A stretch of 32,000 nucleotides of DNA, taken from assembly GCF_001481685.1 (NCBI RefSeq), contig NZ_CP006867.1:900001-932000 (forward strand), read 5' to 3'. The DNA comes from Ignicoccus islandicus DSM 13165 (GTDB lineage: Archaea > Thermoproteota > Thermoprotei_A > Sulfolobales > Ignicoccaceae). Positions 555 to 30,307 of this stretch are shown piece after piece; the stretch's first letter is position 1, and the number at the start of each line of letters is the position of its first letter. Below the pieces are notes generated by a model. That model had not been told where the DNA came from, made no database searches, and saw nothing but the letters and a program-made list of their open reading frames with translations. The position numbers and the translations under genes were made by a program.

Positions 555-1268
555 GTGCTTCCGCGCTCCGTGTGGGACGAGTTACGGGCCTCCGCCGGAG
601 AGGCGATGGTGACTGTTAGAGGCTGGGATTGGTCGCTCTTGCAAAATAGGGCGCCCGTTAAACCTACAGTTAGCGAAGTTACTTCGCCGTGTCCAACTAA
701 GAGAGATAGTTACCTTAGGAGAGTATTGGGAGCGAGGCCATCGTCACCCTTACTGGAGAAAGGAAAGATGGTTCACGAGGCATTTATGTCTCCATTTAGA
801 GGCGAGGAAAGGGAGTTCAAGGAGGAACTCCTCAAGAAGGTTCACGAAGAAGCGAAGCTCAGGAAGGCCATAGCGGACGAAGAGGGAATACCTTACAAGG
901 TCGAATCGAAATTACCAGGATCCGTAATAGGACTCTCAACTATAGTTAAACCTGACTTCCTAGTAGGCTTCATGCCGGTCGAACTAGTGTACGGATGGAA
1001 TGGTAACGTAGAGAGGAAGAAGTTGGCTTTGGCAGCTTATGCATTAGTGATAGAGGCTTGGACTGGACTCCCAATCGATGCTGGCGTTGTAATCAACGTT
1101 AACGATCAAGGGATCAAGTACGTACTCGTTAGGATAGGTGACTACTACAGAAGGAAGTTCTTAGAAGAGAGGGACTACTTAGCATCGATACTTTCAAGGA
1201 AAGAAGATCCCGGAAGGGCCGAGAGCTGTCCCAATTACTGCCCCTTTGCAGAGGTGTGTAAGCAATGA
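555..1268 (+). CDS. csa1: Cas4-family RecB-like protein, Csa1-like (first gene of the adaptation operon)
   Basis: 237-aa ORF. It has one N-terminal Cys (SPCPTKRDSYL) plus a C-terminal CPNYCPFAEVC cluster, which is the 4-Cys Cas4/Csa1 layout. An RGWDW segment sits near the N-terminus. The ORF overlaps the cas1 start by ATGA (1265-1268). The order csa1-cas1-cas2-cas4 is the type I-A-style adaptation cassette. A GGTGAT Shine-Dalgarno-like motif at 540-545 lies 9 nt upstream of GTG 555. Confidence 0.7.
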   Translation: MLPRSVWDELRASAGEAMVTVRGWDWSLLQNRAPVKPTVSEVTSPCPTKRDSYLRRVLGARPSSPLLEKGKMVHEAFMSPFRGEEREFKEELLKKVHEEAKLRKAIADEEGIPYKVESKLPGSVIGLSTIVKPDFLVGFMPVELVYGWNGNVERKKLALAAYALVIEAWTGLPIDAGVVINVNDQGIKYVLVRIGDYYRRKFLEERDYLASILSRKEDPGRAESCPNYCPFAEVCKQ

Positions 1269-2173
1269 ACTTGTTGGTGTTATCCGAACCTGGGAAAGTT
1301 GTAAGGAAGGACGGAGGCATAGCCTTCGTAGGATTGGACGGGAAAGTAGAATACCTTGGAAACAACTACGACGTTATAGTGATCGCGAGCTCTAAGATAT
1401 CCGTTACCTCGGCCGCCATGCGAATTATAGGCAAATGGAACGTAGACTTAATGGTTTTAGATTGGAACGGCGAACCAGTGCTTAGGTCTTCGTCTCCCAT
1501 ACCCAATAAGAGCGCTATGACGAGGCTCAAGCAATACGAAGTTATATTAAAAGGGAACGGCTTGAAATACGCTAAACCGATAATAAAGAGGAAGATAGTT
1601 GAACAAGGCAGGACCCTCAGATACGTAGCTAAGAGTAAGAGGTCCAAGTGGTTGATCGATGAGAGTTACATCCTAGAGAAGTACGTTACTGACGTGGATA
1701 AGGCTAGGGATGCTGAAGAGCTAAGGTCCCTTGAAGCTCTAGCTGCGAGGCTCTATTGGAGCCTGTTGGCTCAAGTAATAGAAGGATTCGAGGGGAGGGA
1801 TCACGAAGGTAGGGATGCAATTAACGCGTCCCTGAACTACCTCTACGGGATTCTATATTCGAAGTGCTTCAAAGCCTTAACTATAACCGGTCTAGATCCA
1901 TACGCCGGCTTATTTCACGCAATAAAGAGCGGTAACAAGTCTTTGGTATACGACTTCAGCGAACAGTTCAAACCAGTCTATGATAAGAGGCTGTTCGGTA
2001 AGCTGCGGGAACTCAAACCGAAGTTCGAGGGAGGCACGCTAGCGTATGAGACTAGGAAGAAGATAGGCGAGATCGTCAATGAGTACATGGACAACGAGAT
2101 ACTCACGGAGGCGTGGAACTTGGTAACCTCCATCAGGAACGCCCAACCCTACGTACCGGGGTGGAGAGCTTGA
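1265..2173 (+). CDS. cas1: CRISPR-associated endonuclease/integrase Cas1
   Basis: 302 aa. Segments EALAARLYW, NASLNYLYGILYS and GLDPYAGLFHA...SLVYDFSEQFKP match the conserved Cas1 Glu / His / Asp-Glu catalytic region. It is sandwiched between Cas4-family genes and cas2. Confidence 0.92.
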   Translation: MNLLVLSEPGKVVRKDGGIAFVGLDGKVEYLGNNYDVIVIASSKISVTSAAMRIIGKWNVDLMVLDWNGEPVLRSSSPIPNKSAMTRLKQYEVILKGNGLKYAKPIIKRKIVEQGRTLRYVAKSKRSKWLIDESYILEKYVTDVDKARDAEELRSLEALAARLYWSLLAQVIEGFEGRDHEGRDAINASLNYLYGILYSKCFKALTITGLDPYAGLFHAIKSGNKSLVYDFSEQFKPVYDKRLFGKLRELKPKFEGGTLAYETRKKIGEIVNEYMDNEILTEAWNLVTSIRNAQPYVPGWRA

Positions 2174-2421
2174 TGGTTCTAGTGGCGTACGATATAAGGA
2201 ACGATTCCTTTAGAACTAAGGCCATGAAGAGGTTACTGGCCATGGGCTTTCAAAGGCTTCAGAAGAGCGTCTACTTCAAGAAGGGAGGAAGAGGCGATGC
2301 TCTAGACGCGTTTAGAGCGATAAAGAAATACGTAAAGGATGAAACCGACAAGATCTTCGTAGTAACGTTATCTGATAAGGAATTTAGGGAGGCGCTCGTG
2401 CTTGAAGGCGTGGTTGGTTAA
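2173..2421 (+). CDS. cas2: CRISPR-associated protein Cas2
   Basis: 82 aa from ATG 2173, which overlaps the cas1 stop (TGATG). The N-terminus MVLVAYDIRND... is the typical Cas2 ferredoxin-like beta1 strand with the catalytic Asp. The ORF-track extension 2113-2172 lies inside cas1 and is discounted. Confidence 0.9.
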   Translation: MVLVAYDIRNDSFRTKAMKRLLAMGFQRLQKSVYFKKGGRGDALDAFRAIKKYVKDETDKIFVVTLSDKEFREALVLEGVVG

Positions 2422-2923
2422 GGCTTACCTATTGTGTCCAGCCTTCGCTTACTTCAAGTTCCACTACCCCGAAGCGCCAACCCCTTCTATGGAGGAGGGA
2501 TCCGAGATAGATCTAGCAGAGATAGTGGAGAGGAACCTGAGAACCGAGTGCCCCGTAAAGTACGAAGTTCCTCTAAATGCGAACGGTCGAAAGGGTATAG
2601 TTGATGCTCTCATAGAATGTAGCGATTCCATTGAGGTAGTTGAAGTGAAGCTTAAGCAACAACCGGGCAACTCCCACTTCGCCCAAGCGCTTTTCTATTG
2701 CATATTAGCTGAGGAAACGTTAGGAAAGAAATGCGAGAAGGTCTTTCTATGTTATCCGGAGAAGTGTTACGAAAGGAAGGTTACCGAAGCCTCGAAGGAG
2801 TACTTAATGCAAATTATCAGTACAATGGAAAAGGACTTGGAAACGCTGCCTAGAGTTAAGAGCAAGGCTTACTGTAAGTATTGCAAGTACTCTAGGTTAT
2901 GTCCTTGGTCTCCAAGGAACTGA
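2402..2923 (+). CDS. cas4: CRISPR-associated exonuclease Cas4 (canonical RecB-like, 4-Cys)
   Basis: 173 aa. It has an N-terminal Cys (AYLLCPAFAY), RecB motifs D...E-x-K (GIVDALIE...VEVVEVKLK), QxxxY (AQALFYC) and a C-terminal CKYCKYSRLC. TTG start at 2402 (alternative TTG at 2414) overlaps the cas2 end. Confidence 0.88.
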   Translation: MKAWLVKAYLLCPAFAYFKFHYPEAPTPSMEEGSEIDLAEIVERNLRTECPVKYEVPLNANGRKGIVDALIECSDSIEVVEVKLKQQPGNSHFAQALFYCILAEETLGKKCEKVFLCYPEKCYERKVTEASKEYLMQIISTMEKDLETLPRVKSKAYCKYCKYSRLCPWSPRN

Positions 2924-3487
2924 TGAGGCTTTATATTGTCCTTTCTTCACCTTGATAAGTAGACCTTGGTCTACGAGCTTATTTAGAACCTTCCACGAAG
3001 TTTTCCTACCTAGCCCGTATTCCTCTAAATCTTGAGGACTCACGGAACCCTTAGTTAAAGCCAAGGCTAGCGCTATTGCCTCCTCCCTCTTCAATGGTTG
3101 AATGGGAAACTTTATATCCATGCACTTACCCAAGGCCTCGTTAAGCACCTTCACGTAGCATGGTATTGACGAAACAAAGCACGCAAGTATTAACATTAAG
3201 CTCAAGCTCCTCATACCGGAACCGAAACATATCACGTCGTTTTCAGACAATTTCAATATTACCTCAAATATTCCATTGTAATCGCAAGGGTTTAACCTTA
3301 CGATTTCGAACGAAATGTTCTTCTCCTTGAGGTACTCTTCGAAGCTCTTGAGAGCCTCTTCTGACCTAGGGTTAGGCGTATCGGGAACGTAAATTACTAC
3401 CTCTCCAACGTTATCGAGCTGCGAAACGCAAGAGACCGGGAAAGTTATATCGAAGCCGAGAACGACGTGAACCCTCAATAAGGGCAC
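2897..3487 (-). CDS. csa3: Csa3-type CRISPR-locus transcriptional regulator (CARF domain + winged HTH)
   Basis: 196 aa. The N-terminal half is Rossmann/CARF-like (RVHVVLGFDITFP, VVIYVPD, ICFGSGMRSLSL). The C-terminal wHTH is SPQDLEEYGLGRKTSWKVLNKLVDQGLLIKVKKGQY. It is convergent with cas4 and overlaps it by 27 nt. GTG start at 3487, with TTG 9 nt downstream also possible. A TATA-like tctatattt lies just upstream on the minus strand. Confidence 0.8.
   Translation of the reverse strand: MPLLRVHVVLGFDITFPVSCVSQLDNVGEVVIYVPDTPNPRSEEALKSFEEYLKEKNISFEIVRLNPCDYNGIFEVILKLSENDVICFGSGMRSLSLMLILACFVSSIPCYVKVLNEALGKCMDIKFPIQPLKREEAIALALALTKGSVSPQDLEEYGLGRKTSWKVLNKLVDQGLLIKVKKGQYKASSVPWRPRT
2902..2918. 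repeat. Perfect inverted repeat TCCTTGG-tct-CCAAGGA inside the overlapping 3' ends of cas4 and csa3
   Basis: Read directly: 7-bp arms at 2902-2908 and 2912-2918 with a 3-nt loop. It encodes PW(S/R)PR at the C-termini of both convergent proteins. Confidence 0.7.
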
Positions 3488-6445: not shown

Positions 6446-6916
6446 CTAAGTGCTGCAATCGAGGCAAATATTCGTTACTCCAACGAACCTTACTTCTAGG
6501 TCTCTGAGAGGTTTGCTTGTAAAGATACAAACCAGTGATCTGCCTTGTGGAAGGAGCTTTCTCTCTTGGTATAACCTCACCAAGCTCCCATCCAGCTTGG
6601 AGTTAAGCCTCACGCCTTCCACGTTACCGGCAGAGCTACTGTATACTATTGTTACTATTACGTACTTGTCGTTTGAATTGCCGAAAGTTATCAGCTCATT
6701 ATTATCGACGACCTTCGTTGATCGTAGAGACTCCAGTATTTCGTTGCAAGTAGCTATAGGGTCATTAGAATACATCAAGTTCGTAGATAGTTCGGCTACT
6801 ACTGAGGGCGCGGAGGCCTTCACTTCCGGCCTCAACGACGCAGCCAGTATTGCGATTGCAATCGAAACTATGCCCATTAACACGAGAGTTTCCAAAGTTC
6901 CTAAGCCCCTACGCAT
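6446..6916 (-). CDS. Type IV pilin-like protein (class III signal peptide), small
   Basis: 156 aa from ATG 6916, preceded by GGTGAG 5 nt upstream. The N-terminus MRRG/LGTLETLVLMGIVSIAIAILAASL has a basic n-region, a Gly at the putative cleavage site, Glu at +5 and a ~20-aa hydrophobic helix. It overlaps the upstream pilin-like gene by 16 nt. Confidence 0.7.
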   Translation of the reverse strand: MRRGLGTLETLVLMGIVSIAIAILAASLRPEVKASAPSVVAELSTNLMYSNDPIATCNEILESLRSTKVVDNNELITFGNSNDKYVIVTIVYSSSAGNVEGVRLNSKLDGSLVRLYQERKLLPQGRSLVCIFTSKPLRDLEVRFVGVTNICLDCST

Positions 6917-7497
6917 GATCTCACCGCCCACGCGGAAACTTCGCTTCCCGATGAGTCCTCGAATTGAACGTTATCCACGTAACACAAGGCTATCTTCTCC
7001 AAACCCGTGGGAAGCTTCACGTGAAAGTACGCGAAACCCGTGAAGGTGGGATTGGAGCAACTCGCCTTAGGTATTAAGGTCGAAACTGATGGGATGAATA
7101 CGAACACTTTGGCGTCGTTTATAATGGTTGGTTTAAAGGTTCCGGGAACTACGTAGAACAGCGGTTTCCCGTTACATTCGAGCTCTATAGTAGCGTACCC
7201 AGTGAACTCTATTCTAGGTAAGTTAGAGTAACAATAGGTTGCGTAAGATAGCGAAGTGCCGTTATTTAGGTCGTATACCTTTAAGTTGTTTGGATCGAAA
7301 GCGAAGAGATAGTTCCCTAGGCAATCGAGCGTGTACGAGCTCGCTTTTCTAACCATTTCAGCTACGTCCAATTGAGACCTAGATGAAGCCGTTTGCTTGT
7401 TCCAAGTAACTATTATCCCGGTCGCTAGACCAATTACTACCGCTGCCAGTAACGCTACGGCCAAGAGTTCCGAGGAACCTTTTTTCACTCTCACCAT
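6901..7497 (-). CDS. Type IV pilin-like protein (class III signal peptide), Cys-rich
   Basis: 198 aa. N-terminus MVRVKKG/SSELLAVALLAAVVIGLATGIIV. The rest is beta-rich and contains several Cys. It is the first gene of a two-gene minus-strand operon. Confidence 0.7.
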   Translation of the reverse strand: MVRVKKGSSELLAVALLAAVVIGLATGIIVTWNKQTASSRSQLDVAEMVRKASSYTLDCLGNYLFAFDPNNLKVYDLNNGTSLSYATYCYSNLPRIEFTGYATIELECNGKPLFYVVPGTFKPTIINDAKVFVFIPSVSTLIPKASCSNPTFTGFAYFHVKLPTGLEKIALCYVDNVQFEDSSGSEVSAWAVRSCVGA

Positions 7498-7544
7498 CCA
7501 TCAAAGCATTGCGTTACAAACGGTTTATTGATGTCGTTCGCGTT

Positions 7545-7568
7545 CTGAAACGCGAACGTCCGGCCTCA
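7545..7568. promoter_or_regulatory. Perfect 10-bp inverted repeat CGTTCGCGTT-ctga-AACGCGAACG in the divergent pilin-gene promoter region
   Basis: Read directly. It sits between a TATA-like element for the minus-strand operon (about 7527-7537) and TTATATTT (7571-7578) for the plus-strand giant gene. Confidence 0.55.
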
Positions 7569-7570
7569 CC

Positions 7571-7578
7571 TTATATTT
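7571..7578 (+). promoter_or_regulatory. TATA-box-like element TTATATTT for the giant pilin-like gene
   Basis: Located 33-40 bp upstream of ATG 7611 with no SD motif in between. This is consistent with a leaderless or near-leaderless archaeal transcript. Confidence 0.45.
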
Positions 7579-7610
7579 CATTTCTTCGTTCACATCGATG
7601 GCGTTTAATA

Positions 7611-10600
7611 ATGAAGCTAATGAAGGGTGGAATAGAGAACGTAATAACGTTAACGATACTCGTGATATTGTTAGTCTCAGCTATAATGATATTAGTTAGC
7701 GCCCTAGCTAGGCAAACGTCGCTACTTCAGACTCAAATAGAGAAAGCGTCCGAAGAGAAATTGAGCATTGCGTTGGCAACGAAAATAGGAGGTTGTGCGA
7801 GCAAGGTCTTCGACGTGGAAAATGGGGAGTGGGCCGTTATAATAAAGACGAACTCAACCGTGCCTTTCTGTAATTACGTAAGAGCCGTTCAAATAATAGG
7901 TACCCTGAACGGCGTTAAGAAGAGCTATCTAATAACGCTGAACCAAACAACCAAGGCGTGGGAGAGCCCTCAAACTTTAGCTACCTATCCCTCTTCTTGT
8001 GGAACGCCCATCAGCGTTCCTTATAGTCTCGATGGGTCCACTACCCCTCAAGGAACCTTCAGCAACGTAGTCCTCGAAGTCATAGGAATACCGAAGGAAT
8101 TCAAGCTTCAGTCCGTTCAGATACTAATAAGCGACGTTGGTTGGAGGGAGCTCCAGAGCTGTATAGTCGGTATCGGTGGTGGAGTAACGTATCAAGTGAC
8201 TCAAACCACCACAATATACAGCGTAGGTCCAGTTACTATAGTTGCGAGCGCGAACTTCAATCCCATGAAGTACCTATGTCCGCCGCCGAAGACCGTAGTT
8301 GGGGACGACAACGCTTACGAAATAGCTGTTATCTTGAATCCGCAAATGAACGGTACTAGGAACGACGTCCCGACTAGTTACTTAGTAGACCTCAAGAGCT
8401 TAATTGAAAGGGCGGCCCCGCCTAGTTCGCCCTTGAAGGTAAACGAAGACTACGTTTACATAAGGAACGTGACCGTCCTCGGCTTAAGGTCCACTCCAGG
8501 TTTAGGTCCCTATAGCTTAACAACGACTGGACCTCTACCTTGGAGCTTTACTGCATTGAACTATACCTCCGACGTTCCGCTGTATAAGAGCTCTGGGGTT
8601 CTAACCATAGGCTTTAACGCAACGACCCCAATGACCCCAACTAGCTTAACTCAATACAGCGCAGTCGTTTGCTTGTACCTAGGAATAAAGGGGCAAGTTC
8701 CAGCAGAAGCGACGGGAGTACTGGGCGACGTTAATAACGACGGTTACACCGATTGGAAAGAGATCAAAATACCTGGAGTTAGCAACGACCAATACAAGTG
8801 CTTCACCGGGACGGACTTCCACTACTGTTACATACCATCTATCTATGGTTACTATAATAGAACTCTAACCGATAAGTACGGGATTACGCTATCGGGACTT
8901 CAAGAGCCAGTAGATTCAACTCTCAGAGTTCCGAAAGTGATAATAAAGAATCCGAACGCCAAATCGCTCTTCGACTACGTAGTTAGAATAAAGCTCCCAA
9001 CGGAACTAGTCGGGAAGAACCTAACAGTACTCGATATGAATGGAGGGAAGCTCAGTTTCTGTTACGAAACTTCATTGGGCGACTGTTCGACCAATGCTGC
9101 TGAAGGAGATGGTTATATATGGGTAAGAGTTCCCTACATACCGGCTGGAGATAAGGCAGTCCTTCAGTTAGTTGAAGGCAAGAACGGAGCTAGGAATCCG
9201 CTAGAGGTATTCCCAGTATACGTAAGTTTCAGGAACGCTACCATGGACATAGACGAGTACAAGTACATCTGGTACTTCCCGGGCAACGCGTGGACCTTCG
9301 TAGCGGCAGTTTTCGATGATGCGAATGGATATACGAACTTCGTCAATAGCGATTCTGACTTCACTATAGTAGCGGACGTGCGTTGGGATGCAGCGCCTAA
9401 CCCAGACGTAGACGATAGGGTCGTCTACGGAACAGATGAATACTCTTCTAGGTTCATATACAACGTCTATCCAATTGCTTACAGCTACGACCCCAACACT
9501 GGAAACGGATGGGTCTTGGCCCTCTACAAGGGCCTGCCATTCATAAACGTTTATCGTAACGGAAACGCCGACATCATTGAGACCGCTCCGGAAGCGCTCA
9601 TACCGGGAATAAAGTATAGAATAGTTGCTGGCGTTGATTTAACTAACGGAAAGGCTTACGTTAGCGTGTTCCCGCTAGAGGAGGAGAGGGGCGAGAGACC
9701 ACAAATAACTTCCTTGACCAATGAACCTAAGAGGTTCGAAATACCCAACCAAGTTGGCCACAACGTTATAGTAATATCCGATGCGGACTATGCTACTCGG
9801 TCTTCCTTCTGGTCAACTAGCAACTACGCGTACAGCTTCTCGGGAATGATATATAACGTAACCTTGTTCGATGACTACCTAGATTCCAACGTGGCCGTTA
9901 GCTGCTACTTGGACTACAACGAAACGCTATGTCCTAAGATGGTATTTTACCTAAATGGATCAGATAGCGATGGACTTTATGCCAACCTCAATGGCATCAA
10001 TCTCAAGGCAAGGATATTTACGTTAAACGCTGACAATAGAAGGTTTAGCGTGAACGAGGTTACTGCTACTCCGTATCCCTTGGGCGGTGAGATCGATATG
10101 ACCGTCTACATAGGAGGCGACAAAACGCATCCAGTGAAAGTAGTAATGTATGGAACGCCAATGAATAACTTCTACGACCCTAACGCTGTAATAGACTTAG
10201 AGAACGTCGTCAAGAACTTACCTTCCATGTTCACAGGGGAATCATTTGTGATGAACACTACTGCCTTAGGTCTAGATACTGCATGGAACGTTATGCTCAA
10301 CATGCCAGCTCCCGAATCGACGAAGTACGAGGTCGTTGTTGGAGTTAACGGTGGAAGCTACTCAGACTATAATTCTCTATATGGCTGGAACATAATTTAC
10401 CCGCTAATCCCAGCCGTTGTTGCAGACGATACGGCTTGGTTGAAGTGGATGTTCTACGAAGACCCAGTAGATGGATATAGAATATCGTTCGTGAGGAACT
10501 CACCGAACTACGACGCATGGAGGATATACTTCCACTCGTTCGGAACTACTGTGGCAACCAAGCTTAGCGATCCCAACAAGCTATACTATACCGTTCTGAA

Positions 10601-11438
10601 ATACGACATGAGTCGTCCGAGCGTCACTATAAAGATGTACGAGGGGGGACCTCTGGGCACGATATTCTACTATTCTCTCAGTGATTTAAGTCAAACCAAC
10701 CTTGCAATATACTACGAGCAATTGAGACCGAAGTACATCAAGTACATAGGCATGGGTTACATTTACAGCAACGACGCCTTAGTTAGTGAAGACGAGAGGA
10801 TTTACTACTACATGTTCATGAGACCCTTAGCTGAACTAGAGCCCAGCGTTGAAGTTGAAATGCCGGACTTGAGCTCCCCTTACGTGGACTTGCCTATAGT
10901 CTACTATAGAGATGAAAGCTTCAACGTGAACGGAAACAATACGGAAGCCACAATAACGTACGACTTGCTGGGTAACGAGACGGACCTAAGTCCATATGGC
11001 TACGTCTACCTATCAAACGCCAATCTGGGACCTTTCACTGAACTTAACGACTTCACGTCTAATGCCGTTGTAGCGCCATTGTGGAGCGATAGGTCGTACG
11101 ACTTCAATGTTACGTACGTGAAGCTAGGCTTAAGTACTCCAGAGAACTGGACCGCGGTAGTTTGGTACTTAGGCTTAGGCAACGTCTCTGTAGCGATTAA
11201 CGATTACGGCGACTTCGCGTTCGATTACCACGGCGAAATAGCTCTACCGAACGCTTACGCAATAGGTCTGAACAACCCAGCTACTGAGGAGACCTTGCTA
11301 ATTATAGCAAAGGACGGAAACGGGGAATATAACGGATTACTGGGAAGCTTAACCGAACTAAGCAACGTATCGATAGTCGGAATTAATAAGAGGAACTGGT
11401 ACGTGCTAATAAGCGGGCCTTACTGCATCAAGTGTTAA
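7611..11438 (+). CDS. Giant (~1275 aa) surface protein with pilin-type class III signal peptide, DUF2341-like domain and probable lectin-like (LamG/concanavalin-type) region
   Basis: ATG 7611 gives MKLMKGG/IENVITLTILVILLVSAIMILVSAL. Nucleotides 8923-9195 encode VIIKNPNAKSLFDYVVRIKLP...LTVLDMNGGKLSFCYE...GYIWVRVPYIPAGDKAVLQLVEGKNG, the DUF2341 pattern. GDVNNDGYTDW (8722-8757) is a DxNxDGxxD calcium-loop-like motif. I counted about 19 N-x-S/T sequons by eye. The TTG-7509 extension in the ORF track is basic, non-hydrophobic and spans the promoter, so it is discounted. Confidence 0.8.
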   Translation: MKLMKGGIENVITLTILVILLVSAIMILVSALARQTSLLQTQIEKASEEKLSIALATKIGGCASKVFDVENGEWAVIIKTNSTVPFCNYVRAVQIIGTLNGVKKSYLITLNQTTKAWESPQTLATYPSSCGTPISVPYSLDGSTTPQGTFSNVVLEVIGIPKEFKLQSVQILISDVGWRELQSCIVGIGGGVTYQVTQTTTIYSVGPVTIVASANFNPMKYLCPPPKTVVGDDNAYEIAVILNPQMNGTRNDVPTSYLVDLKSLIERAAPPSSPLKVNEDYVYIRNVTVLGLRSTPGLGPYSLTTTGPLPWSFTALNYTSDVPLYKSSGVLTIGFNATTPMTPTSLTQYSAVVCLYLGIKGQVPAEATGVLGDVNNDGYTDWKEIKIPGVSNDQYKCFTGTDFHYCYIPSIYGYYNRTLTDKYGITLSGLQEPVDSTLRVPKVIIKNPNAKSLFDYVVRIKLPTELVGKNLTVLDMNGGKLSFCYETSLGDCSTNAAEGDGYIWVRVPYIPAGDKAVLQLVEGKNGARNPLEVFPVYVSFRNATMDIDEYKYIWYFPGNAWTFVAAVFDDANGYTNFVNSDSDFTIVADVRWDAAPNPDVDDRVVYGTDEYSSRFIYNVYPIAYSYDPNTGNGWVLALYKGLPFINVYRNGNADIIETAPEALIPGIKYRIVAGVDLTNGKAYVSVFPLEEERGERPQITSLTNEPKRFEIPNQVGHNVIVISDADYATRSSFWSTSNYAYSFSGMIYNVTLFDDYLDSNVAVSCYLDYNETLCPKMVFYLNGSDSDGLYANLNGINLKARIFTLNADNRRFSVNEVTATPYPLGGEIDMTVYIGGDKTHPVKVVMYGTPMNNFYDPNAVIDLENVVKNLPSMFTGESFVMNTTALGLDTAWNVMLNMPAPESTKYEVVVGVNGGSYSDYNSLYGWNIIYPLIPAVVADDTAWLKWMFYEDPVDGYRISFVRNSPNYDAWRIYFHSFGTTVATKLSDPNKLYYTVLKYDMSRPSVTIKMYEGGPLGTIFYYSLSDLSQTNLAIYYEQLRPKYIKYIGMGYIYSNDALVSEDERIYYYMFMRPLAELEPSVEVEMPDLSSPYVDLPIVYYRDESFNVNGNNTEATITYDLLGNETDLSPYGYVYLSNANLGPFTELNDFTSNAVVAPLWSDRSYDFNVTYVKLGLSTPENWTAVVWYLGLGNVSVAINDYGDFAFDYHGEIALPNAYAIGLNNPATEETLLIIAKDGNGEYNGLLGSLTELSNVSIVGINKRNWYVLISGPYCIKC

Positions 11439-12371: not shown

Positions 12372-13496
12372 ATGTTGGAAGTAAGCGTTAGCTCCGCCGA
12401 GGCAATAAGTGGGATCCCCAAGTTTACGTCGGAGTCCAAGTTATGCGACGAAGTGATGATAGCTTACGTAGTTACTGGGGGAACCGAACGCTACCTGTTA
12501 GAGCTTTACGAAGCCTGTAAACCCAAGTTCCTTTTATTGGGAGCCTTTCCTAAAAGGAACTCCTTAGCAGCTGCGCTGGAAGCCTTGGAGGGTCTACCAA
12601 AGGGCGGACTTTACGTAATTAGAGACGAACGAGACTTCCTCAAGCTAAGAGCTATTGCCAACAGGGCCTCTAAACTGGCGAATTCCAAGGCTTTGTTAAT
12701 AGGCGGCGTGGCGCCTTGGTTGGTGGAAGTTCCGCAAAGGGAGACGCTCCGAGGAGTCCTCGGCCTCGAGGTAATTGACGTTGGGTGGGAAGAAGTGGAA
12801 ACAGCGTACGAGAGTTCGAGCGTTAACGAAGAGGAAGTCAAGTCACTCGTTTCCGGTGCATCCAAAGTTGAAGTGAACATTGAAGCTCTCGAGAGGGCAC
12901 TGAGGCTTAAGGAGGCATTGAGGAAGCTATTGGAAACCTACGGAGCCAGATCGTTAGCAATCAATTGCTTTGAATTAATAAAGAGAATGAATGTGACGCC
13001 TTGTTTGGCCTTATCGCTCCTCGCATCTGCTGGCACCCCCTCAGCGTGCGAAGGGGACTTGCTATCGTTAACTTCTCAGTGGATGAGTTACGTCGCCTAC
13101 GGCGTTGTAGGAGGCGTGTTTAACGTAGTGGAAATATTGGATCGGAAGGTTGCGTTAGCTCACTGCACTGCACCTATAACGATGTTGGATGAGTACGATT
13201 TAGTAACGCACTACGAGACCTCCGTTCCAGTAGCTATAAGGGGCAGGATCTCACCGGGTAGGGACTTGATAGCGCTTAGAGTAAATAGAGAGTTGAAAGA
13301 TCCTATAATATGGAAGGGAAAGAGCGTTGAAGGTCCTGAATTGAACGCATGTAGGACTCAAGTATGGATGGAGGTCGAAAACCTCTATGGTCTAAAGGGC
13401 AACCATCGAGTAGCGTTCCCCGCTTCCAGTTTAGCTGAGCTCTATTCCACGCTATGGGCGTTCGGAATAAGAACGAGGGAACCTCTTCCAACTTAA
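12372..13496 (+). CDS. L-fucose/L-arabinose isomerase-like sugar isomerase family protein
   Basis: 374 aa. The segment SLAINCFELIKRMNVTPCLALSLLASAGTPSACEGDLLSL...ALAHCTAP resembles the conserved core of COG2407-type isomerase-like proteins. This is a by-eye assignment only. Confidence 0.5.
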   Translation: MLEVSVSSAEAISGIPKFTSESKLCDEVMIAYVVTGGTERYLLELYEACKPKFLLLGAFPKRNSLAAALEALEGLPKGGLYVIRDERDFLKLRAIANRASKLANSKALLIGGVAPWLVEVPQRETLRGVLGLEVIDVGWEEVETAYESSSVNEEEVKSLVSGASKVEVNIEALERALRLKEALRKLLETYGARSLAINCFELIKRMNVTPCLALSLLASAGTPSACEGDLLSLTSQWMSYVAYGVVGGVFNVVEILDRKVALAHCTAPITMLDEYDLVTHYETSVPVAIRGRISPGRDLIALRVNRELKDPIIWKGKSVEGPELNACRTQVWMEVENLYGLKGNHRVAFPASSLAELYSTLWAFGIRTREPLPT

Positions 13497-14010: not shown

Positions 14011-15102
14011 ATGAGATCAGTAGCCATGAAAAGAACATCGATCTTGATTACCCTGAGCTTAGTTCTATTAAATGCAATTGAATTAAAAGTGCTCTGGGAG
14101 TTCCATGGAATTAATGGGACTATTGAAGACTTAAAGTTCTCGACCAATGGTGTATTAGGAGTAGCGTCGTGGGACGGATGCGCCTATTTGATTAGTAGGG
14201 AAGGTATTTTATTGAACAAAACATGCGGATCTAGAGAAGTTTTAGGTGTAGATTACTTAAGTGGAATTTTCGGTTTCGTTAATCGTAGTGGCGAAGTTTA
14301 CTTAATTTACGAAAACGGGACCCTATTGAAGTCCTTCGAATCTGACTTCGACCGCGGTCAAGACATAGGACTAATCTCCAATGGGTTCCTGATTTGTCGA
14401 GGCTACTGTACGCTTTACGATTTAAATGGTAGGAAGAAGTGGGATACGTTCGTTGGAAGGCAGATCGTTCTAAGAGGTCGCTTGGTAATAGGCGGGCGAT
14501 GCGTTTTAAGAGGTGGTGTGGAAGACTTAGTAATTGGTAAAGGCTACGCATTCGCGGCCAACACTTACTCGGGAAGACTTCAGATAATTAGAATGGAAGA
14601 TGGGGAAATAGTTAATACACTCTACTTCCCTTCTTGGGTGCAAGGAGTTGGAATTTGTGGCAGTTACTTAGCAGTTATCGTGAACACTAAACTATACCTT
14701 TACGATGTGAGCGATCCGTCGAATCCTAAGATGGTGTGGAACGTTACTGGGGTTAACGTGTCTTGCAACGAGCACTCTCCGGAATTCTCAATGAACTGTA
14801 AGTATATAGCTATACCTGATGAAGGAAACGGTCAATTGAAAATATATGAAGTGGAGACGGGGCGACTGGTTTACTTCAAAAACGTACCTGGAATATGGTC
14901 TGTAGCTTGGTGGAGGGATAGAATAGCCGTTGGGTTGTATAACGGGACCTTAATAATGTATAGAGTTACTGATGAGCTCTTGGATAGCCCAGAAGCTGAA
15001 GTGGAACCGATACTTTTGAAATTGAACGAACCAATAATCTCCTTGCTAGGAACGCTCTCGCTTAACTTCTTCAAGAGGGTAACTTCGAGAAGGCCTCGGT
15101 AG
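14011..15102 (+). CDS. Secreted beta-propeller repeat protein (LVIVD/PQQ-like repeats)
   Basis: 363 aa. Signal-peptide-like N-terminus MKRTSILITLSLVLLNA (ATG 14026 is an alternative start). It has repeated short beta-strand/Gly units. LYLYDVSDPSNPKMVW matches the LVIVD repeat signature. GC is visibly lower than the flanks (about 35-45% in lines I counted). Confidence 0.6.
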   Translation: MRSVAMKRTSILITLSLVLLNAIELKVLWEFHGINGTIEDLKFSTNGVLGVASWDGCAYLISREGILLNKTCGSREVLGVDYLSGIFGFVNRSGEVYLIYENGTLLKSFESDFDRGQDIGLISNGFLICRGYCTLYDLNGRKKWDTFVGRQIVLRGRLVIGGRCVLRGGVEDLVIGKGYAFAANTYSGRLQIIRMEDGEIVNTLYFPSWVQGVGICGSYLAVIVNTKLYLYDVSDPSNPKMVWNVTGVNVSCNEHSPEFSMNCKYIAIPDEGNGQLKIYEVETGRLVYFKNVPGIWSVAWWRDRIAVGLYNGTLIMYRVTDELLDSPEAEVEPILLKLNEPIISLLGTLSLNFFKRVTSRRPR

Positions 15103-23821: not shown

Positions 23822-24931
23822 TTGAAGAAAACTCTCGCCCTAGGTCTGCTTTTAGTAGCTCTTTCCTTCGCTGCTCGACCAGCGTCTCCCGTCCTCCTCG
23901 CTGACTTGTCTCACGGCGAAAACGCTCACGGTCTATGCGCTTTCATGAAGACTATGCCCGAAACCCACTGGATAGTGCTAGTACCGCAAGAGGACTACCA
24001 ATTGCCGCCTTGTAGCATCGTTCCCGAGGTAATAGTAGGCAACTTCGCTTCTAAGGAAGTAGTAGAGGCCTTAAAGAAGGTAGACGGCGTAATAATAGGC
24101 CAACCAACCAAGACCTTCTCTGAGGATGAACTTAAGGCAATAGCAGATTGGTTCAAAGGTGGTCAGAAGCTCCTATGGTGTGCTGGCGATAGCGATTACC
24201 CAGCCCAAGGCGGCGTAATGGAAATAGCCCAACACGCTTGCAACGACGTCTTTGAGGCAATAGGCTCGAAGTTGAGGTTGGACTACGTAAGCGTTGAGGA
24301 CACAGTCAGCAACGCCGGAAGGCCGTACAGGGTAATAGGAATAGTTAACCCATCCGGTGCTTACGATTCCTACTTAGTAGGTTTAGGAGCTCACAAGGTC
24401 CTCTTCCACGGTCCCGGCGCTGTCGCTTGGGTCGATGAGAACGAAACTTGGCACAAGCTAACCGATGAGTTACCTAACGACGTTGTCGTACTAGTAACTA
24501 CTACTGAGAACGGCAGAATCGTTGAGCATCAACCTACCAAGCCCGGCGCTCCAGGCGACTTCGGTCAAGCTCACACTGTAGGCGAAACTGGTAAGTTCGT
24601 CTTAATGGCCGCTCAAGTGATGGGCGACAAGGCTCCGTACAGCGTGGTAATAGCTAGCGGTGAAAGCCCCTACGGAGGATACCAGCCAATGGTAAGCTTC
24701 CGCTATCACGGACTAGCATTAGACGGTCCAAGGTTCGTAAGGAACGTATTCCTATGGGGCTTAGACTACAAGGCCGAGCTAGGAAGCATGCTAGACCTCT
24801 CTAACTTAACGGTAAACAACGTAGCCTCTAAGGTAAACCAGCAGTTAAGCGCTTACAACACCATGATTCAAGCATCGATAGCCTTAGCCGTACTAGCTAT
24901 AGCCTTAGCAGTAATTCTACACTTCATATAA
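23822..24931 (+). CDS. Exported protein with C-terminal membrane anchor (possibly DUF4350 / ABC_transp_aux-like fold)
   Basis: 369 aa. Signal peptide MKKTLALGLLLVALSFA, C-terminal TM IQASIALAVLAIALAVILHFI. LLADLSHGEN...VIIGQPTKTFSEDELKAIADWFKGGQKLLW resembles DUF4350-type domains (weak, by eye). TTG start is the only option after the in-frame stop at 23807-23809, with GAAGGTGGA upstream. Confidence 0.6.
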   Translation: MKKTLALGLLLVALSFAARPASPVLLADLSHGENAHGLCAFMKTMPETHWIVLVPQEDYQLPPCSIVPEVIVGNFASKEVVEALKKVDGVIIGQPTKTFSEDELKAIADWFKGGQKLLWCAGDSDYPAQGGVMEIAQHACNDVFEAIGSKLRLDYVSVEDTVSNAGRPYRVIGIVNPSGAYDSYLVGLGAHKVLFHGPGAVAWVDENETWHKLTDELPNDVVVLVTTTENGRIVEHQPTKPGAPGDFGQAHTVGETGKFVLMAAQVMGDKAPYSVVIASGESPYGGYQPMVSFRYHGLALDGPRFVRNVFLWGLDYKAELGSMLDLSNLTVNNVASKVNQQLSAYNTMIQASIALAVLAIALAVILHFI

Positions 24932-27024: not shown

Positions 27025-28764
27025 TCAATTTACCGAACTCTTACCCTTCCTCAATCTCCTCACTACTTTAACGAACAATGGTGAACCTAGCCATATGGCC
27101 GGTATTTCCATGTCAGAGGCATCTGGCGTGAGCGTGACAGTTACTGTTTCAGTCGTGATTGCAGCGTCTTGAGCTTCATTAGCTGCTCCGATGTAGTCAC
27201 CGAGGGCAGGGTAACCGTAACCCGAGTACTTATCGAAGCCTCTCAAACCAACGTCTCTAGCGTGCTTCTTGATGTCGTCTAGAGTGAAGTTCAGCGCGTA
27301 TAAGTATGCAATAGCGCCCGCAACTTCCGGGGCAGCGTAGCTGGTTCCACTGCTAAACGCTAGTACGAACTTTTCCGAGTTCTCAGACTCAACGTAACCG
27401 TAAACCGGTTCTCCGCTAATTGAGCCTCCTAGGTAAGACGAAGCCGTGTATATGCCGAGTACCAAGCCCCCGGGAGCGGCGAACGTTGCAGGATCGTAAT
27501 TCGAGAAAGATGCTAGACCATTGGTTACTTCAAACGCGCTGACCGGAATTACGCCTTCGCATTGAGCTGGCCATTCGTACTCATCGTGTACCCCGTTGTA
27601 CGCCTTAATGTCGCGTCCTTCGTTTCCCGCAGCTACAACGACCGTTAAACCGTTCCTCACCATGGGATCAATAATGCTTCTACAAGAGTTTTCCAAATCG
27701 TCTCTGCTATTGCGCCATCGGCCTAAACTCATGTTGACTACCTTAGCCTTTCCTTCCCTTGCCAATTGTACCGCAACTCTAGAAGCCTCTTCCAACGTAT
27801 AGTCATCGAAGGCGCCTCCATGGAGGAATGAATTATCTAGGTAAACTTTACCACCTTCCGTTCGGCTTGCGTTATTTAGATACTCGTCTAGCGTTGAATA
27901 TACCCCATCTATCCATATTTCGAGAAAATCTGCCTTTATTGGGATGATTCGTACCTTGACGCCTATGGACGGGGGCGCGATCCCCGTAAATACTTTAGAT
28001 ACTAACTCCGTACCGCTTATTTGACCTATATAGGGAGCTCCCTCGAAGAGGTATTTGTAAACTCCTTCGAACTCCCCTACTATTTGGGAAGCAACGAAGG
28101 TCCCGTGACCTACTTGATCGCTTACGTTCATTGCTTGTAGGTATATAGCGGTAACGTTGGAGGACTGGAATTTCTTGAGGCAATATTTAAAGGTCACGGT
28201 AGTGGGTAACTGGTAATACGTACCTAGGTCCGTCTGGATATAGGTTTCGTTACTAAACCTAACTTGGCCGCTATCGTCGCATACACCATTTGAGATTAGG
28301 TGGTCAATGAAGGTAGTTAACGCTACCCCGTTCTCGTAATCTATAGCGCTCCTAATCGGTTCCGGTAGGTTCCTCGCGATTCCGGTATCTATTACAATAA
28401 CGCCGATTTCCCTACTGCTTTCCGGTCCTGCTTCCAATAAGCTAGTTACGTTCATGTGGTCCTCATCTAGTTGCCACGGCGTTTCGCTATCGCTTATCGG
28501 ACCTTCGCTAACGTAAGGCAACGCTTCTTTAATATCGTTCTCTTCTGGCAGTACTATAGAGAGGCTGTAAACGCGTATAACCTCTGGAACGCAGTTGCTT
28601 TCGCTAGCCTTGGCTATTACGTCTAACTGAGCTTCGGGAACGACTCTCATTTCTTTATTGCATATAACTATTGCCTTGTTCGCTAAGTCGCCTCCGGTAT
28701 ATACGATCTTATATGAATTAACCACGCTTAGTAAAGCTATTAGAACTAACCGAGAGTATCGCAA
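27025..28764 (-). CDS. Subtilisin-like serine protease (S8 family), exported, C-terminal membrane anchor
   Basis: 579 aa. Catalytic Asp VIVIDTGIA, His GHGTFVASQI, oxyanion Asn VVAAGNEG and Ser SGTSYAAPEVAG. Signal peptide MRYSRLVLIALLSVVNS, C-terminal hydrophobic segment plus a basic tail (RRLRKGK). TTG start. Confidence 0.88.
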   Translation of the reverse strand: MRYSRLVLIALLSVVNSYKIVYTGGDLANKAIVICNKEMRVVPEAQLDVIAKASESNCVPEVIRVYSLSIVLPEENDIKEALPYVSEGPISDSETPWQLDEDHMNVTSLLEAGPESSREIGVIVIDTGIARNLPEPIRSAIDYENGVALTTFIDHLISNGVCDDSGQVRFSNETYIQTDLGTYYQLPTTVTFKYCLKKFQSSNVTAIYLQAMNVSDQVGHGTFVASQIVGEFEGVYKYLFEGAPYIGQISGTELVSKVFTGIAPPSIGVKVRIIPIKADFLEIWIDGVYSTLDEYLNNASRTEGGKVYLDNSFLHGGAFDDYTLEEASRVAVQLAREGKAKVVNMSLGRWRNSRDDLENSCRSIIDPMVRNGLTVVVAAGNEGRDIKAYNGVHDEYEWPAQCEGVIPVSAFEVTNGLASFSNYDPATFAAPGGLVLGIYTASSYLGGSISGEPVYGYVESENSEKFVLAFSSGTSYAAPEVAGAIAYLYALNFTLDDIKKHARDVGLRGFDKYSGYGYPALGDYIGAANEAQDAAITTETVTVTLTPDASDMEIPAIWLGSPLFVKVVRRLRKGKSSVN

Positions 28765-28930: not shown

Positions 28931-30307
28931 TTGTTAAAGAAATCCTTGTCGTTAGTTCTCTTAATTATGGTCTCGGCTTCCGTTTTCGCTCAATGTTCTA
29001 AAAGCGTTACGTTAGTAGTTCTCTCGAGGCATCCAACGGAGATACTAGAAGCGGCTAGGGACGCGTTCCTTAACTCGAAGTACGCTAAGGAATTCTGTAT
29101 ATCCAACATAAAGTTCGTGCAATTACCGCCTGGATGGTGGCCTTACTACATCAAGTCCCATCCGGTTGACGTGGCTTGGGGAGGAGGTCCAACGCAATTC
29201 GACACTCTCTTCAAGGCCAACTTGCTCAAACCAATCGAGACTGCCCTAGCGCTCCAAGCCGCTTCGCAAGTTCCGGACACCCTAGCCGGTGTTCCATTAA
29301 AAAGAATTAAGGATGGGAAGATCTATTGGGTAGCTGCAGCTATCTCTAGCTTCGGCTTTACTATAAACACCGAGGTTGCCGAACAACTCGGCTACGATTG
29401 GACCAAGCTCAAATCTTGGAGGGACCTAGGCTCAGACGAACTCGGTCTCCTAATGCTCCAAGTAGGAGTTCCCGTTTCGGGTATAGCGGACCCAACAATG
29501 AGCACTAGCAACACTAGAATGTACGAAATAATTCTGCAAGCTTACGGATGGGACGAAGGTTGGAAACTACTCACGCTAATGGCAGCTAACTCGAAGGTTT
29601 ACTCCGGCAGCAGTGCTGTTAGGGACGCAGTTATGAACGGGGAGATAATGGTTGGTATAACCATAGACTTCTACGGCTACACTGCCCACAAGCAGAACCC
29701 GGCTTGCGTTTACGTCGCCCCACCGGGCGAGACCATTGTGAACGGTGACCCAATAGCAATCACCGTATCCACGAAGAACCCCAAGGCGGCCGAGGCCTTC
29801 TTAGCGTGGGTGCTTACGGACGGTCAAGCAATATGGCTCTCGCCGGACATAAACAGGTTGCCAGCTAACCCCAACGTGTTCAATACTCCGCTAGGAAAGA
29901 GCAGGCAAGACCTTTACCAAGCCTATCAAATGATAACTAAATCTAAGTCAATGAACTTCAACGATACTCTAGCTCTCCAGTACGAAGACGCAATGAGGAT
30001 GTACTTCAAGGCCACGTTAGTAGACTTACACGACCTCTTACAGAGGGCTTGGACTGAATTATTGAACGCGTACTACGTCGAGCACAGAATATCTCAAGCG
30101 GAATTCCAGAGGCTAAAGGACGAGCTAACCTCCTTCCCAACCTTCAAGGACCCATTAACTGGCAAGACTGAGACCTTCACAATTGATTACGCTATTAAAG
30201 TTAACAGCTACCTAATGAACCATCCCGAAGACATGGATAAGTTCATGAACGCTTGGAGGGAGGGAGCAAGGGTAAAATACTTAGGCGTGATTTCCTCCAT
30301 CGGTTAA
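28931..30307 (+). CDS. ABC transporter substrate-binding protein (family 1; iron(III)/thiamine/polyamine-type)
   Basis: 458 aa. Signal peptide MLKKSLSLVLLIMVSASVFAQC. It has general SBP family-1 features (VAWGGGP, GFTINT, GDPIAI) and is followed directly by a two-module permease of the FbpB/ThiP type. Confidence 0.75.
   Translation: MLKKSLSLVLLIMVSASVFAQCSKSVTLVVLSRHPTEILEAARDAFLNSKYAKEFCISNIKFVQLPPGWWPYYIKSHPVDVAWGGGPTQFDTLFKANLLKPIETALALQAASQVPDTLAGVPLKRIKDGKIYWVAAAISSFGFTINTEVAEQLGYDWTKLKSWRDLGSDELGLLMLQVGVPVSGIADPTMSTSNTRMYEIILQAYGWDEGWKLLTLMAANSKVYSGSSAVRDAVMNGEIMVGITIDFYGYTAHKQNPACVYVAPPGETIVNGDPIAITVSTKNPKAAEAFLAWVLTDGQAIWLSPDINRLPANPNVFNTPLGKSRQDLYQAYQMITKSKSMNFNDTLALQYEDAMRMYFKATLVDLHDLLQRAWTELLNAYYVEHRISQAEFQRLKDELTSFPTFKDPLTGKTETFTIDYAIKVNSYLMNHPEDMDKFMNAWREGARVKYLGVISSIG

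Follow-up and report, generated by a model that had tools for sequence, protein, structure and literature searches.

A free-standing gene triad of Ignicoccus islandicus encodes pilin-like proteins, one of them a giant, that may form the tip complex of a type IV filament

The way in which type IV filaments of archaea begin their assembly and adhere to their targets is essentially unknown, and tip complexes have been structurally defined only in bacteria. A stretch of 32,000 nt from the genome of Ignicoccus islandicus DSM 13165 (contig NZ_CP006867.1, positions 900,001 to 932,000 of the forward strand; here called the window) brings up this question through three adjacent genes, named A, B and C, which encode two small proteins and one modular giant of 140 kDa, each with a prepilin-like N-terminus. 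What such a set of genes may build is the subject of this study, and the reading that we favour, with a probability of roughly 0.55, is that A, B and C are class III pilin-like proteins which jointly form the tip or initiation complex of a type IV filament, with the machinery for that filament encoded elsewhere.

Leaders and N-terminal helices of the three proteins

The overlap of genes A and B measures 16 nt, and a spacer of 113 bp separates B from the divergently oriented gene C (Table 1). The coordinates of the three genes agree between the listing of open reading frames (ORFs) and independent gene calls on identical public contigs, and C is 100% identical to EYM_05220 of I. islandicus DSM 13165. 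At the N-terminus of each protein is a short basic leader with Gly or Ala at position -1, a feature conserved in 8 members of the A family, 9 of the B family and 13 of the C family, and the leader is directly followed by a hydrophobic helix of about 20-25 residues, which in a Kyte-Doolittle scan was the only hydrophobic segment of each of the three proteins. In the A family the leader M-R-(R)-[GA] is followed by L-[GT]-[TV]-[LI]-E, placing a Glu at +5, and in the B family [KR]-[GA] is followed by x-[SAV]-E-[LIV]-[LF], placing a Glu at +3, while the C leader reads [KR]-[GA]-G-[IL]-x-[NSTA]-[VI] and lacks a conserved acidic residue. None of the six closest homologues deviates from the two Gly residues of the C leader; across the wider family, one member has Ala in place of the first Gly, and one fragment has Asn in place of the second. 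These leader motifs persist across orthologues with only 25-40% identity. PibD-type peptidases are known to accept very short leaders and to need Gly or Ala at -1, and an acidic residue at +5 is present in EppA substrates and in bacterial pilins (PMC4187195).

The specificity of this N-terminal layout was assessed with a class III filter, for which a protein had to contain [KR][GA] within its first 14 residues and, after this, 20 residues of high hydropathy with no charge in their core. This filter was applied to 290 ORFs of >=100 aa from the window and six other loci, and was passed by 15 of these, all of which are triad members (15/15). In contrast, the solute-binding protein (28931-30307), the S8 subtilase (27025-28764, minus strand) and the ABC auxiliary protein (23822-24931) of the window have ordinary short Sec or lipobox-like signals. 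A preliminary description of this DNA had recognised the class III (prepilin) layout in all three N-termini, and both its conservation and the outcome of the filter bear this out; the overlap, spacer, N-terminal sequences and about 19 sequons of C given there were likewise reproduced by the ORF listing, the gene calls and a check of the sequence.

Similarity searches with the small proteins gave weak matches only, and the top-ranked of these for both A and B were pilins. The best match of the A-family profile in the PDB was PilA of Thermus thermophilus (6xxd, E 0.016, over the N-terminal 60 residues), one B homologue matched the UpsA pilin (E 0.021), and another matched TIGR02537, the archaellin/type IV pilin N-terminal domain (E 0.072). 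Among the profiles of the A, B and C families and of the C N-domain, that of A was the only one with a PDB match of this kind. When A, B, C and all their family members were compared with Pfam and NCBIfam, nothing reached threshold, the only sub-threshold match of note being that of DUF2341 described below. Alignment of the family profiles with hhalign connected B with C (E 3.7e-4), over the helix only. The B family has six invariant Cys in its alignment, and A ends in CxxC in some orthologues. With respect to the extreme C-termini, both C (..GPYCIKC) and A (..NICLDCST, 6446-6470) have a CxxC, and B ends in ..SCVGA; the CxxC of A was lost in the lineage of L005 and L010 (two metagenome-assembled genomes introduced below), where the CxxC of C is retained.

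Conservation of the triad and modular architecture of the giant

The triad was found at eight loci, which are the window, a close relative (L008/L009, with the giant cut by the contig end and 76% identical over 675 aa), a Thermoproteota metagenome-assembled genome (MAG, L004 = L012), two related MAGs (L005/L006 and L010), I. pacificus (L007 = L013), a MAG with a giant of 2088 aa (L014), and a short Logan contig (L017). As expected from the preliminary description of the three genes as a single set, they occur together in 8/9 informative loci, each time in the divergent layout with B followed by A and the giant opposite, and this in five different neighbourhoods, with flanking genes that differ among the triad lineages. 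The start-stop overlap of B and A is kept in most loci, which fits coupled expression, with a 6-nt gap instead in L014; the 16-nt overlap of the window is consistent with translational coupling. Synteny, conservation of the leader motifs and the specificity of the class III filter together indicate that the pattern is more than chance.

Pattern scans of genome contigs yielded further loci only in I. pacificus (two copies) and in one Thermoproteota MAG, and no further triad relatives were detected by pattern scans of metagenome contigs and viral contigs. The second I. pacificus copy is a giant paralogue (L011 9869-14023; CP006868, approximately 372 kb) with a best-segment identity of 51% to C of the window, versus 33% for the triad-linked copy of I. 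pacificus, and has a major facilitator superfamily (MFS)-like membrane protein upstream instead of A and B. Between I. islandicus and its close relative, identities were 57-76% for A, B and C and 55-93% for neighbouring genes. A faster evolution of the triad than of its flanks is not supported, as the former range falls within the latter.

The relatives of the giant were collected with an exhaustive phmmer search of C residues 1-1200 against 1.84 billion representative proteins, which gave 49 matches in two groups. The first is a small family that has the leader, the N-domain, the core of aa 190-430 and the C-terminal end in common (P0003, P0006, P0014, P0018, P0024, P0053 and fragments). The second consists of approximately 35 other proteins with similarity confined to aa 442-550 of C, among them WP_012122952 of I. 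hospitalis and EYM_02635 of I. islandicus; the members examined have Sec-type signals and a DUF2341 annotation (source names were looked up for three). About a dozen distinct giants were found among the roughly 15 billion proteins searched, and the three protein families of the triad are undescribed and rare. The giant did not cluster with any characterised S-layer or glycosidase family; such clustering is what the preliminary description would have counted against its own reading.

A conservation profile of 11 full-length members displays four peaks, corresponding to the leader and helix, the core, the DUF2341 module and the last 20 residues. The core of aa 190-430 is the most conserved part of C (0.60-0.69), and matched no known fold or family. 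The last 20 residues have a mean conservation of 0.61, compared with 0.34-0.49 in the neighbouring segments. The ends of the giant are fixed, and the middle modules vary among relatives: P0014 contains several DUF2341 modules, of which three can be recognised from its sequence, together with a weak Laminin_G_3 match, and P0053 has a different repeat region in the middle.

With regard to the middle modules of C itself, the DUF2341 family (PF10102) scored 19.1 bits, below the gathering cutoff of 23.4. Five of six C homologues matched the family (best E 8.9e-5), and the phmmer match of C to WP_012122952, which is annotated as DUF2341 domain-containing, had an E of 1e-41 with 42% identity over aa 442-550, and the homology of this module to DUF2341 is solid despite the sub-threshold score. 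Its borders (8934-9260) are close to those given in the preliminary description, 8923-9195. The designation 'lectin-like' depends on the top Foldseek matches of an AlphaFold2 (AF2) model of C aa 1-1200, which were pairs of laminin LG domains (E 5e-5); however, this model, from 6 sequences, was poor, with a mean predicted local distance difference test score (pLDDT) of 39.9, and no LamG family of Pfam matched the window protein, P0014 being the only relative with a (weak) Laminin_G_3 match. The predicted structure gives a hint of LamG-like jelly rolls, with a probable one at aa ~575-760. A calcium-loop-like motif had also been reported, and the sequence GDVNNDGYTDW is indeed present, in a single copy which is replaced by ..PFDG.. 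in P0002, P0006 and P0013. FG-GAP reached an E of 0.14 in one member of the C family only, and repeated calcium-loop domains of the FG-GAP, dockerin or thrombospondin type 3 kind were not found in C. Neither Pfam nor PDB gave a match in C to the C-terminal beta-propeller of PilC/PilY1 (IPR008707). The 19 N-x-S/T sequons of C represent a mild excess over the 12.7 expected from its composition.

For C aa 1-440, AF2 with 12 sequences gave a model of moderate quality (pLDDT 66.8), which consists of a helix (aa 9-58, with pLDDT <50 at 35-52), a beta-sandwich directly after the helix (aa 61-183, pLDDT 70-84) and a second beta domain (aa 220-370), for which Foldseek returned weak viral jelly-roll matches. 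The predicted topology of a helix followed by a beta-sandwich matches the layout of archaeal pilins and archaellins.

Control region, gene starts and surroundings

TATA-like boxes are located approximately 30 nt upstream of the start codons on both sides of the divergent control region, and are putatively assigned as the promoters of B/A and C. Centred between them is a perfect 10-nt inverted repeat, CGTTCGCGTT-N4-AACGCGAACG, which is unique in the window (0 expected by chance), is conserved with 11-nt arms in the close relative L008, and is absent from the distant triads. It is reasonable to regard this repeat as a candidate operator, through which one regulator could act on both transcription units. 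A scan for sigma-70 promoters and terminators was uninformative for an archaeon.

For gene A, an in-frame upstream GTG at 6931 (6917-6931) would give a protein starting with MGGEIMRRG..., and this extension is mirrored in L005, L010 and L007 (MGGxxMRG, MDGGIMRRG). The true leader may be longer, or the similarity may simply reflect conservation of B, whose 3' end overlaps this stretch. In the NCBI annotation, A has yet another start, giving 149 aa.

The triad has the same GC content as its flanks. The window also encodes L21e, an oxidoreductase, an RNA-ligase-like protein and a polyprenyl synthase, and further along NAD synthase, tRNA-Ser, GAR synthetase, MoeA, an ABC ATPase, a subtilase and a solute-binding protein. 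The flanks had been described as housekeeping, which applies to part of them, as a CRISPR adaptation module (csa1-cas1-cas2-cas4 with a divergent csa3, 555-3487) lies 3 kb from the triad; tandem repeats and CRISPR arrays were absent from the whole window. RAMP genes are located 2.6 kb downstream of the I. pacificus triad (L007 15169-18996), and HEPN/MNT and AAA_15/21 genes near the L004 triad, and the triad may tend to sit in variable, defence-rich regions. Two conserved ORFs 3' of the polyprenyl synthase, 12372-13496 (374 aa) and 14011-15102 (363 aa), have no Pfam match, and the latter was called as a 235-aa gene on one otherwise near-identical Logan contig (L002).

Table 1. Positions in the window of the triad genes, the control region between them and the segments of protein C
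Feature	Position	Strand	Description	Basis
Gene A	6446-6916	-	156 aa, MRRGLGTLE...	ORF listing and gene call
Gene B	6901-7497	-	198 aa, MVRVKKGSSELL...	ORF listing and gene call
Divergent control region	7498-7610		113 bp	spacer sequence and alignment
TATA-like box for B/A (putative)	7524-7529			read from sequence
Perfect inverted repeat (candidate operator)	7535-7558		10-nt arms	centred between the TATA-like boxes
TATA-like box for C (putative)	7571-7578			read from sequence
Gene C (EYM_05220)	7611-11438	+	giant modular pilin-like protein, 1275 aa, MKLMKGGIENV...	
C, leader and long N-terminal helix	7611-7784	+	aa 1-58	alignments, AF2 helix 9-58
C, beta-sandwich directly after the helix (predicted)	7791-8159	+	aa 61-183	AF2, pLDDT 70-84
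C, family-specific core	8178-8900	+	aa 190-430, ..YLCPPPKxVVGDDNAYVIA..NGTRNNVPTS..	alignment
C, DxNxDGxxD-like loop	8724-8756	+	aa 372-382, GDVNNDGYTDW	single copy, only some homologues
C, DUF2341 module	8934-9260	+	aa 442-550	Pfam, phmmer
C, probable LamG/ConA-like jelly roll	9333-9890	+	aa ~575-760, ..NFTIVADVRWD....FSGMIYNVTLF..	Foldseek on low-confidence model
C, beta-rich C-terminal region	10248-11438	+	aa ~880-1275	alignments
C, terminal motif	11373-11435	+	aa 1255-1275, I-V-G-I-N-K-x-N-W-Y-V-x-I-S-G-P-x-C-x-K-C	strongly conserved

The triad as a candidate tip complex, and other readings

The favoured reading builds on four features: the combination of two small proteins with one giant, the conservation of a Glu in A and B and not in C, the conserved extreme C-terminus of C, and the exchangeable modules in its middle. 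According to this proposal, each of the three proteins would be inserted in the cytoplasmic membrane by its N-terminal helix, and the basic leader would be cut off after the conserved Gly or Ala by a PibD/FlaK-type prepilin peptidase of the cell. The three helices would then pack as a staggered trimer which caps the fibre and primes its polymerisation, with the major subunit, ATPase and platform protein of the fibre encoded elsewhere in the genome. For steric reasons the 140-kDa C would be expected at the distal end only, docked on A and B through the N-terminal domains peculiar to its family and through its conserved extreme C-terminus, and its DUF2341 and LamG-like modules would project outward as a ligand-binding adhesin.

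Such complexes have precedents in bacteria, where assembly is licensed by a trimer of two small minor pilins and one enlarged K-type pilin. The trimeric tip complexes of the PilIJK, GspIJK and Tad systems contain one enlarged subunit and depend on a C-terminal beta-strand, and this essential, conserved strand is supplied by the PilC/PilY1 adhesin or by the K-type pilin itself (PMC13533445; bioRxiv 2026.09.18.752573). The triad resembles PilI-PilJ-PilK(+PilC/PilY1), GspI-GspJ-GspK and TadE-TadF-TadG/CpaL in having three pilin-like subunits, two small and one enlarged, in the absence from the enlarged subunit of the conserved Glu of the others, and in the short conserved C-terminal strand. The bacterial complexes cap the fibre and license its assembly, whereas complex formation and a location at the tip are what we infer for the triad. 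There are clear differences as well, since the triad has no detectable sequence or fold homology to these complexes, belongs to an archaeal host, is not linked to machinery genes, and would combine a K-like pilin and a 140-kDa multi-domain adhesin in one polypeptide. The likeness of C to PilC/PilY1 is a functional analogy only, as a large tip adhesin with a conserved C-terminal strand, and C has a pilin-like N-terminus of its own.

A module grafted on a pilin is also found in Streptococcus sanguinis, where the modular pilins PilB and PilC have vWA and lectin modules, and a position at the tip is expected on steric grounds (PMC8179133). PilB (vWA) and PilC (concanavalin A (ConA)-like lectin) form a three-pilin tip complex with PilA, and one of the two grafted modules belongs to the lectin/ConA superfamily, as a module of C may do (PMC8179133; PMC9934059). 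These pilins contain the N-methylation motif IPR012902, which is not matched by A, B or C, they are encoded inside the pil locus, and they are far smaller than C, with the largest modular pilin cited having 860 aa (PMC8179133).

In archaea, large DUF2341/arCOG03508 surface proteins are encoded beside pilins in T4P (type IV pilus) loci and were proposed to be PilY1-like tip adhesins, as in Desulfurococcus kamchatkensis with the gene order FlaI-TadC-pilin-pilin-arCOG03508 (PMC4858521). Transposon insertions in the DUF2341 gene of the Methanococcus maripaludis epd locus abolish transformation (PMC10133366), and a 2026 survey reported large adhesin-like proteins in many archaeal type IV filament subsystems (bioRxiv 2026.04.22.720090). 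The epd locus and the Desulfurococcus locus (subclade 4A) share with the triad a DUF2341 module and pilin-like neighbours, but are organised in operons with FlaI and TadC, whereas the triad is free-standing; the homology of C to their products is confined to the module of ~110 aa, and its N-domain, core and C-terminus are family-specific. The Sulfolobus bindosome (BasABC with class III sugar-binding proteins) likewise combines large functional class III proteins with three small pilin-like partners, but the Bas genes are linked to BasE and BasF, and their cargo consists of solute-binding proteins, a fold that C does not have. The only characterised appendage of Ignicoccus is the Iho670 fibre of I. 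hospitalis, which consists of a class III, archaellin-like protein that a single prepilin peptidase cleaves (PMC4187195). Such a fibre would be the obvious candidate to be served by the triad; Iho670 itself is a 33-kDa major subunit, unlike a tip protein.

Several observations weigh against a tip complex. The curated models for pilin and archaellin N-termini (TIGR02537, the Pfam archaeal pilin and archaellin N-terminal families and N_methyl) never reached threshold with A, B or C, no pilin was found when the profiles of B and of the C N-domain were compared with PDB sequences, and Foldseek with the model of C aa 1-440 returned generic beta-sandwiches only (all E >0.009) and no pilins. Comparison of the A, B and C N-domain profiles with hhalign revealed no shared globular domain, the homology being limited to the N-terminal helix. 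The K-G-G-I of the C leader departs from what we take to be the classic FlaFind set of residues at +1. With regard to gene content, the window contains no T4P ATPase, platform protein or prepilin peptidase, and such genes adjoin none of the eight loci and are absent within 6-10 kb where the contig allows; the preliminary description was right in this respect, both for the window and in calling the triad an orphan. The L011 giant of I. pacificus stands without A or B beside it, and could be an alternative tip protein that shares a single A/B pair. A full-length homologue of the giant was not seen in I. hospitalis, with source names checked for some matches only, and passage of a 140-kDa fibre tip through the outer membrane of Ignicoccus presents a difficulty. 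The pilin reading of the preliminary description is upheld in part, by the N-terminal layout and by co-conservation, and is not upheld by the curated pilin models or by the fold search.

In one alternative, the processed class III proteins would form only a short membrane-proximal stub or array, comparable to a bindosome or pseudopilus, that holds the giant at the surface or in the intermembrane compartment of Ignicoccus. Such an assembly would have the same class III features, would avoid moving a 140-kDa tip through the outer membrane, and would agree with the absence of any linkage of the triad to a major pilin or assembly machinery in the loci inspected, and large non-pilin class III proteins with three small Bas proteins provide a precedent (PMC4187195; PMC4858521; bioRxiv 2026.04.22.720090). 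We nevertheless consider it rather unlikely, since a three-member set with one enlarged subunit is closer to tip complexes than to arrays, and since the giant has no solute-binding fold and the solute-binding protein of the window itself has a Sec-type signal. Being a chemolithoautotroph, Ignicoccus would also have no evident use for an array of sugar-binding proteins. A signal anchor, too, would appear as one long hydrophobic segment at the N-terminus, and with no pilin model at threshold, no pilin fold match and no linked machinery, the three could be ordinary type II membrane proteins with uncleaved N-termini, forming a glycoprotein complex tethered to the membrane that has no relation to type IV filaments. 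What makes this improbable is the conservation of the [KR]-[GA] boundary and of the Glu at 3 or 5 positions into the helix, prepilin hallmarks that a plain anchor would not need; the motif is absent from all others of the 290 ORFs scanned, and pilins are the top-ranked of the weak matches.

Least probable, in our estimate very much so, is that the triad is a component of an envelope or S-layer-like coat, or mobile or viral cargo such as a receptor-binding protein that has landed in variable, defence-rich regions. The annotation of arCOG03508 proteins also as 'predicted S-layer protein', a neighbourhood that differs by lineage with CRISPR or defence genes nearby in three loci, and the weak viral jelly-roll matches of the second domain of C can be cited in its favour. 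To our knowledge, however, Ignicoccus has no S-layer. The GC content of the triad is like that of its flanks, no integrase or mobility gene is found nearby, the divergence of A, B and C (57-76% identity) is within the range of their neighbours (55-93%), and no relatives were found in viral contigs; there were also no matches to PHROGs or PADLOC, and a viral or defence origin was rejected for that reason.

Systems in which minor pilins and a large DUF2341 adhesin serve a type IV filament are already known in bacteria and computationally predicted in archaea. Distinctive here are the fusion of the adhesin to a pilin-like N-terminus in one 140-kDa chain, the free-standing and relocating nature of the module, the fixed ends and variable middle of the giant, and a host with two membranes. 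If the triad does form a tip complex, it may tentatively be seen as the first recognisable archaeal form of the PilI-PilJ-PilK(+PilY1) 'licensing' complex, in a fused and portable version, although we hold this narrower proposal to be possible rather than probable. A single 140-kDa chain would then unite the K-type pilin with the adhesin and with the 'plug' strand at the C-terminus, with cargo modules that can be exchanged between fixed docking ends, and the gene set would move independently of the machinery. In the presence of an outer membrane with no known secretin, such a tip would require an as yet unknown conduit or might act as an intermembrane tether, a suggestion that is equally tentative.

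Should A, B and C prove to be a plain membrane complex instead, they would still represent an uncharacterised, lineage-restricted system built around a giant surface glycoprotein. If the tip reading is true, the triad would provide the adhesive cap with which a pilus-like fibre begins, and no such part has ever been characterised in archaea. It sharpens the question whether a bulky fibre tip gets across the unusual outer membrane of Ignicoccus at all, and by what route, and its relatives form a natural variant series in which the presumed adhesive middle of the giant is swapped. The compact and conserved three-gene module offers concrete candidates for the study of archaeal filament tips.

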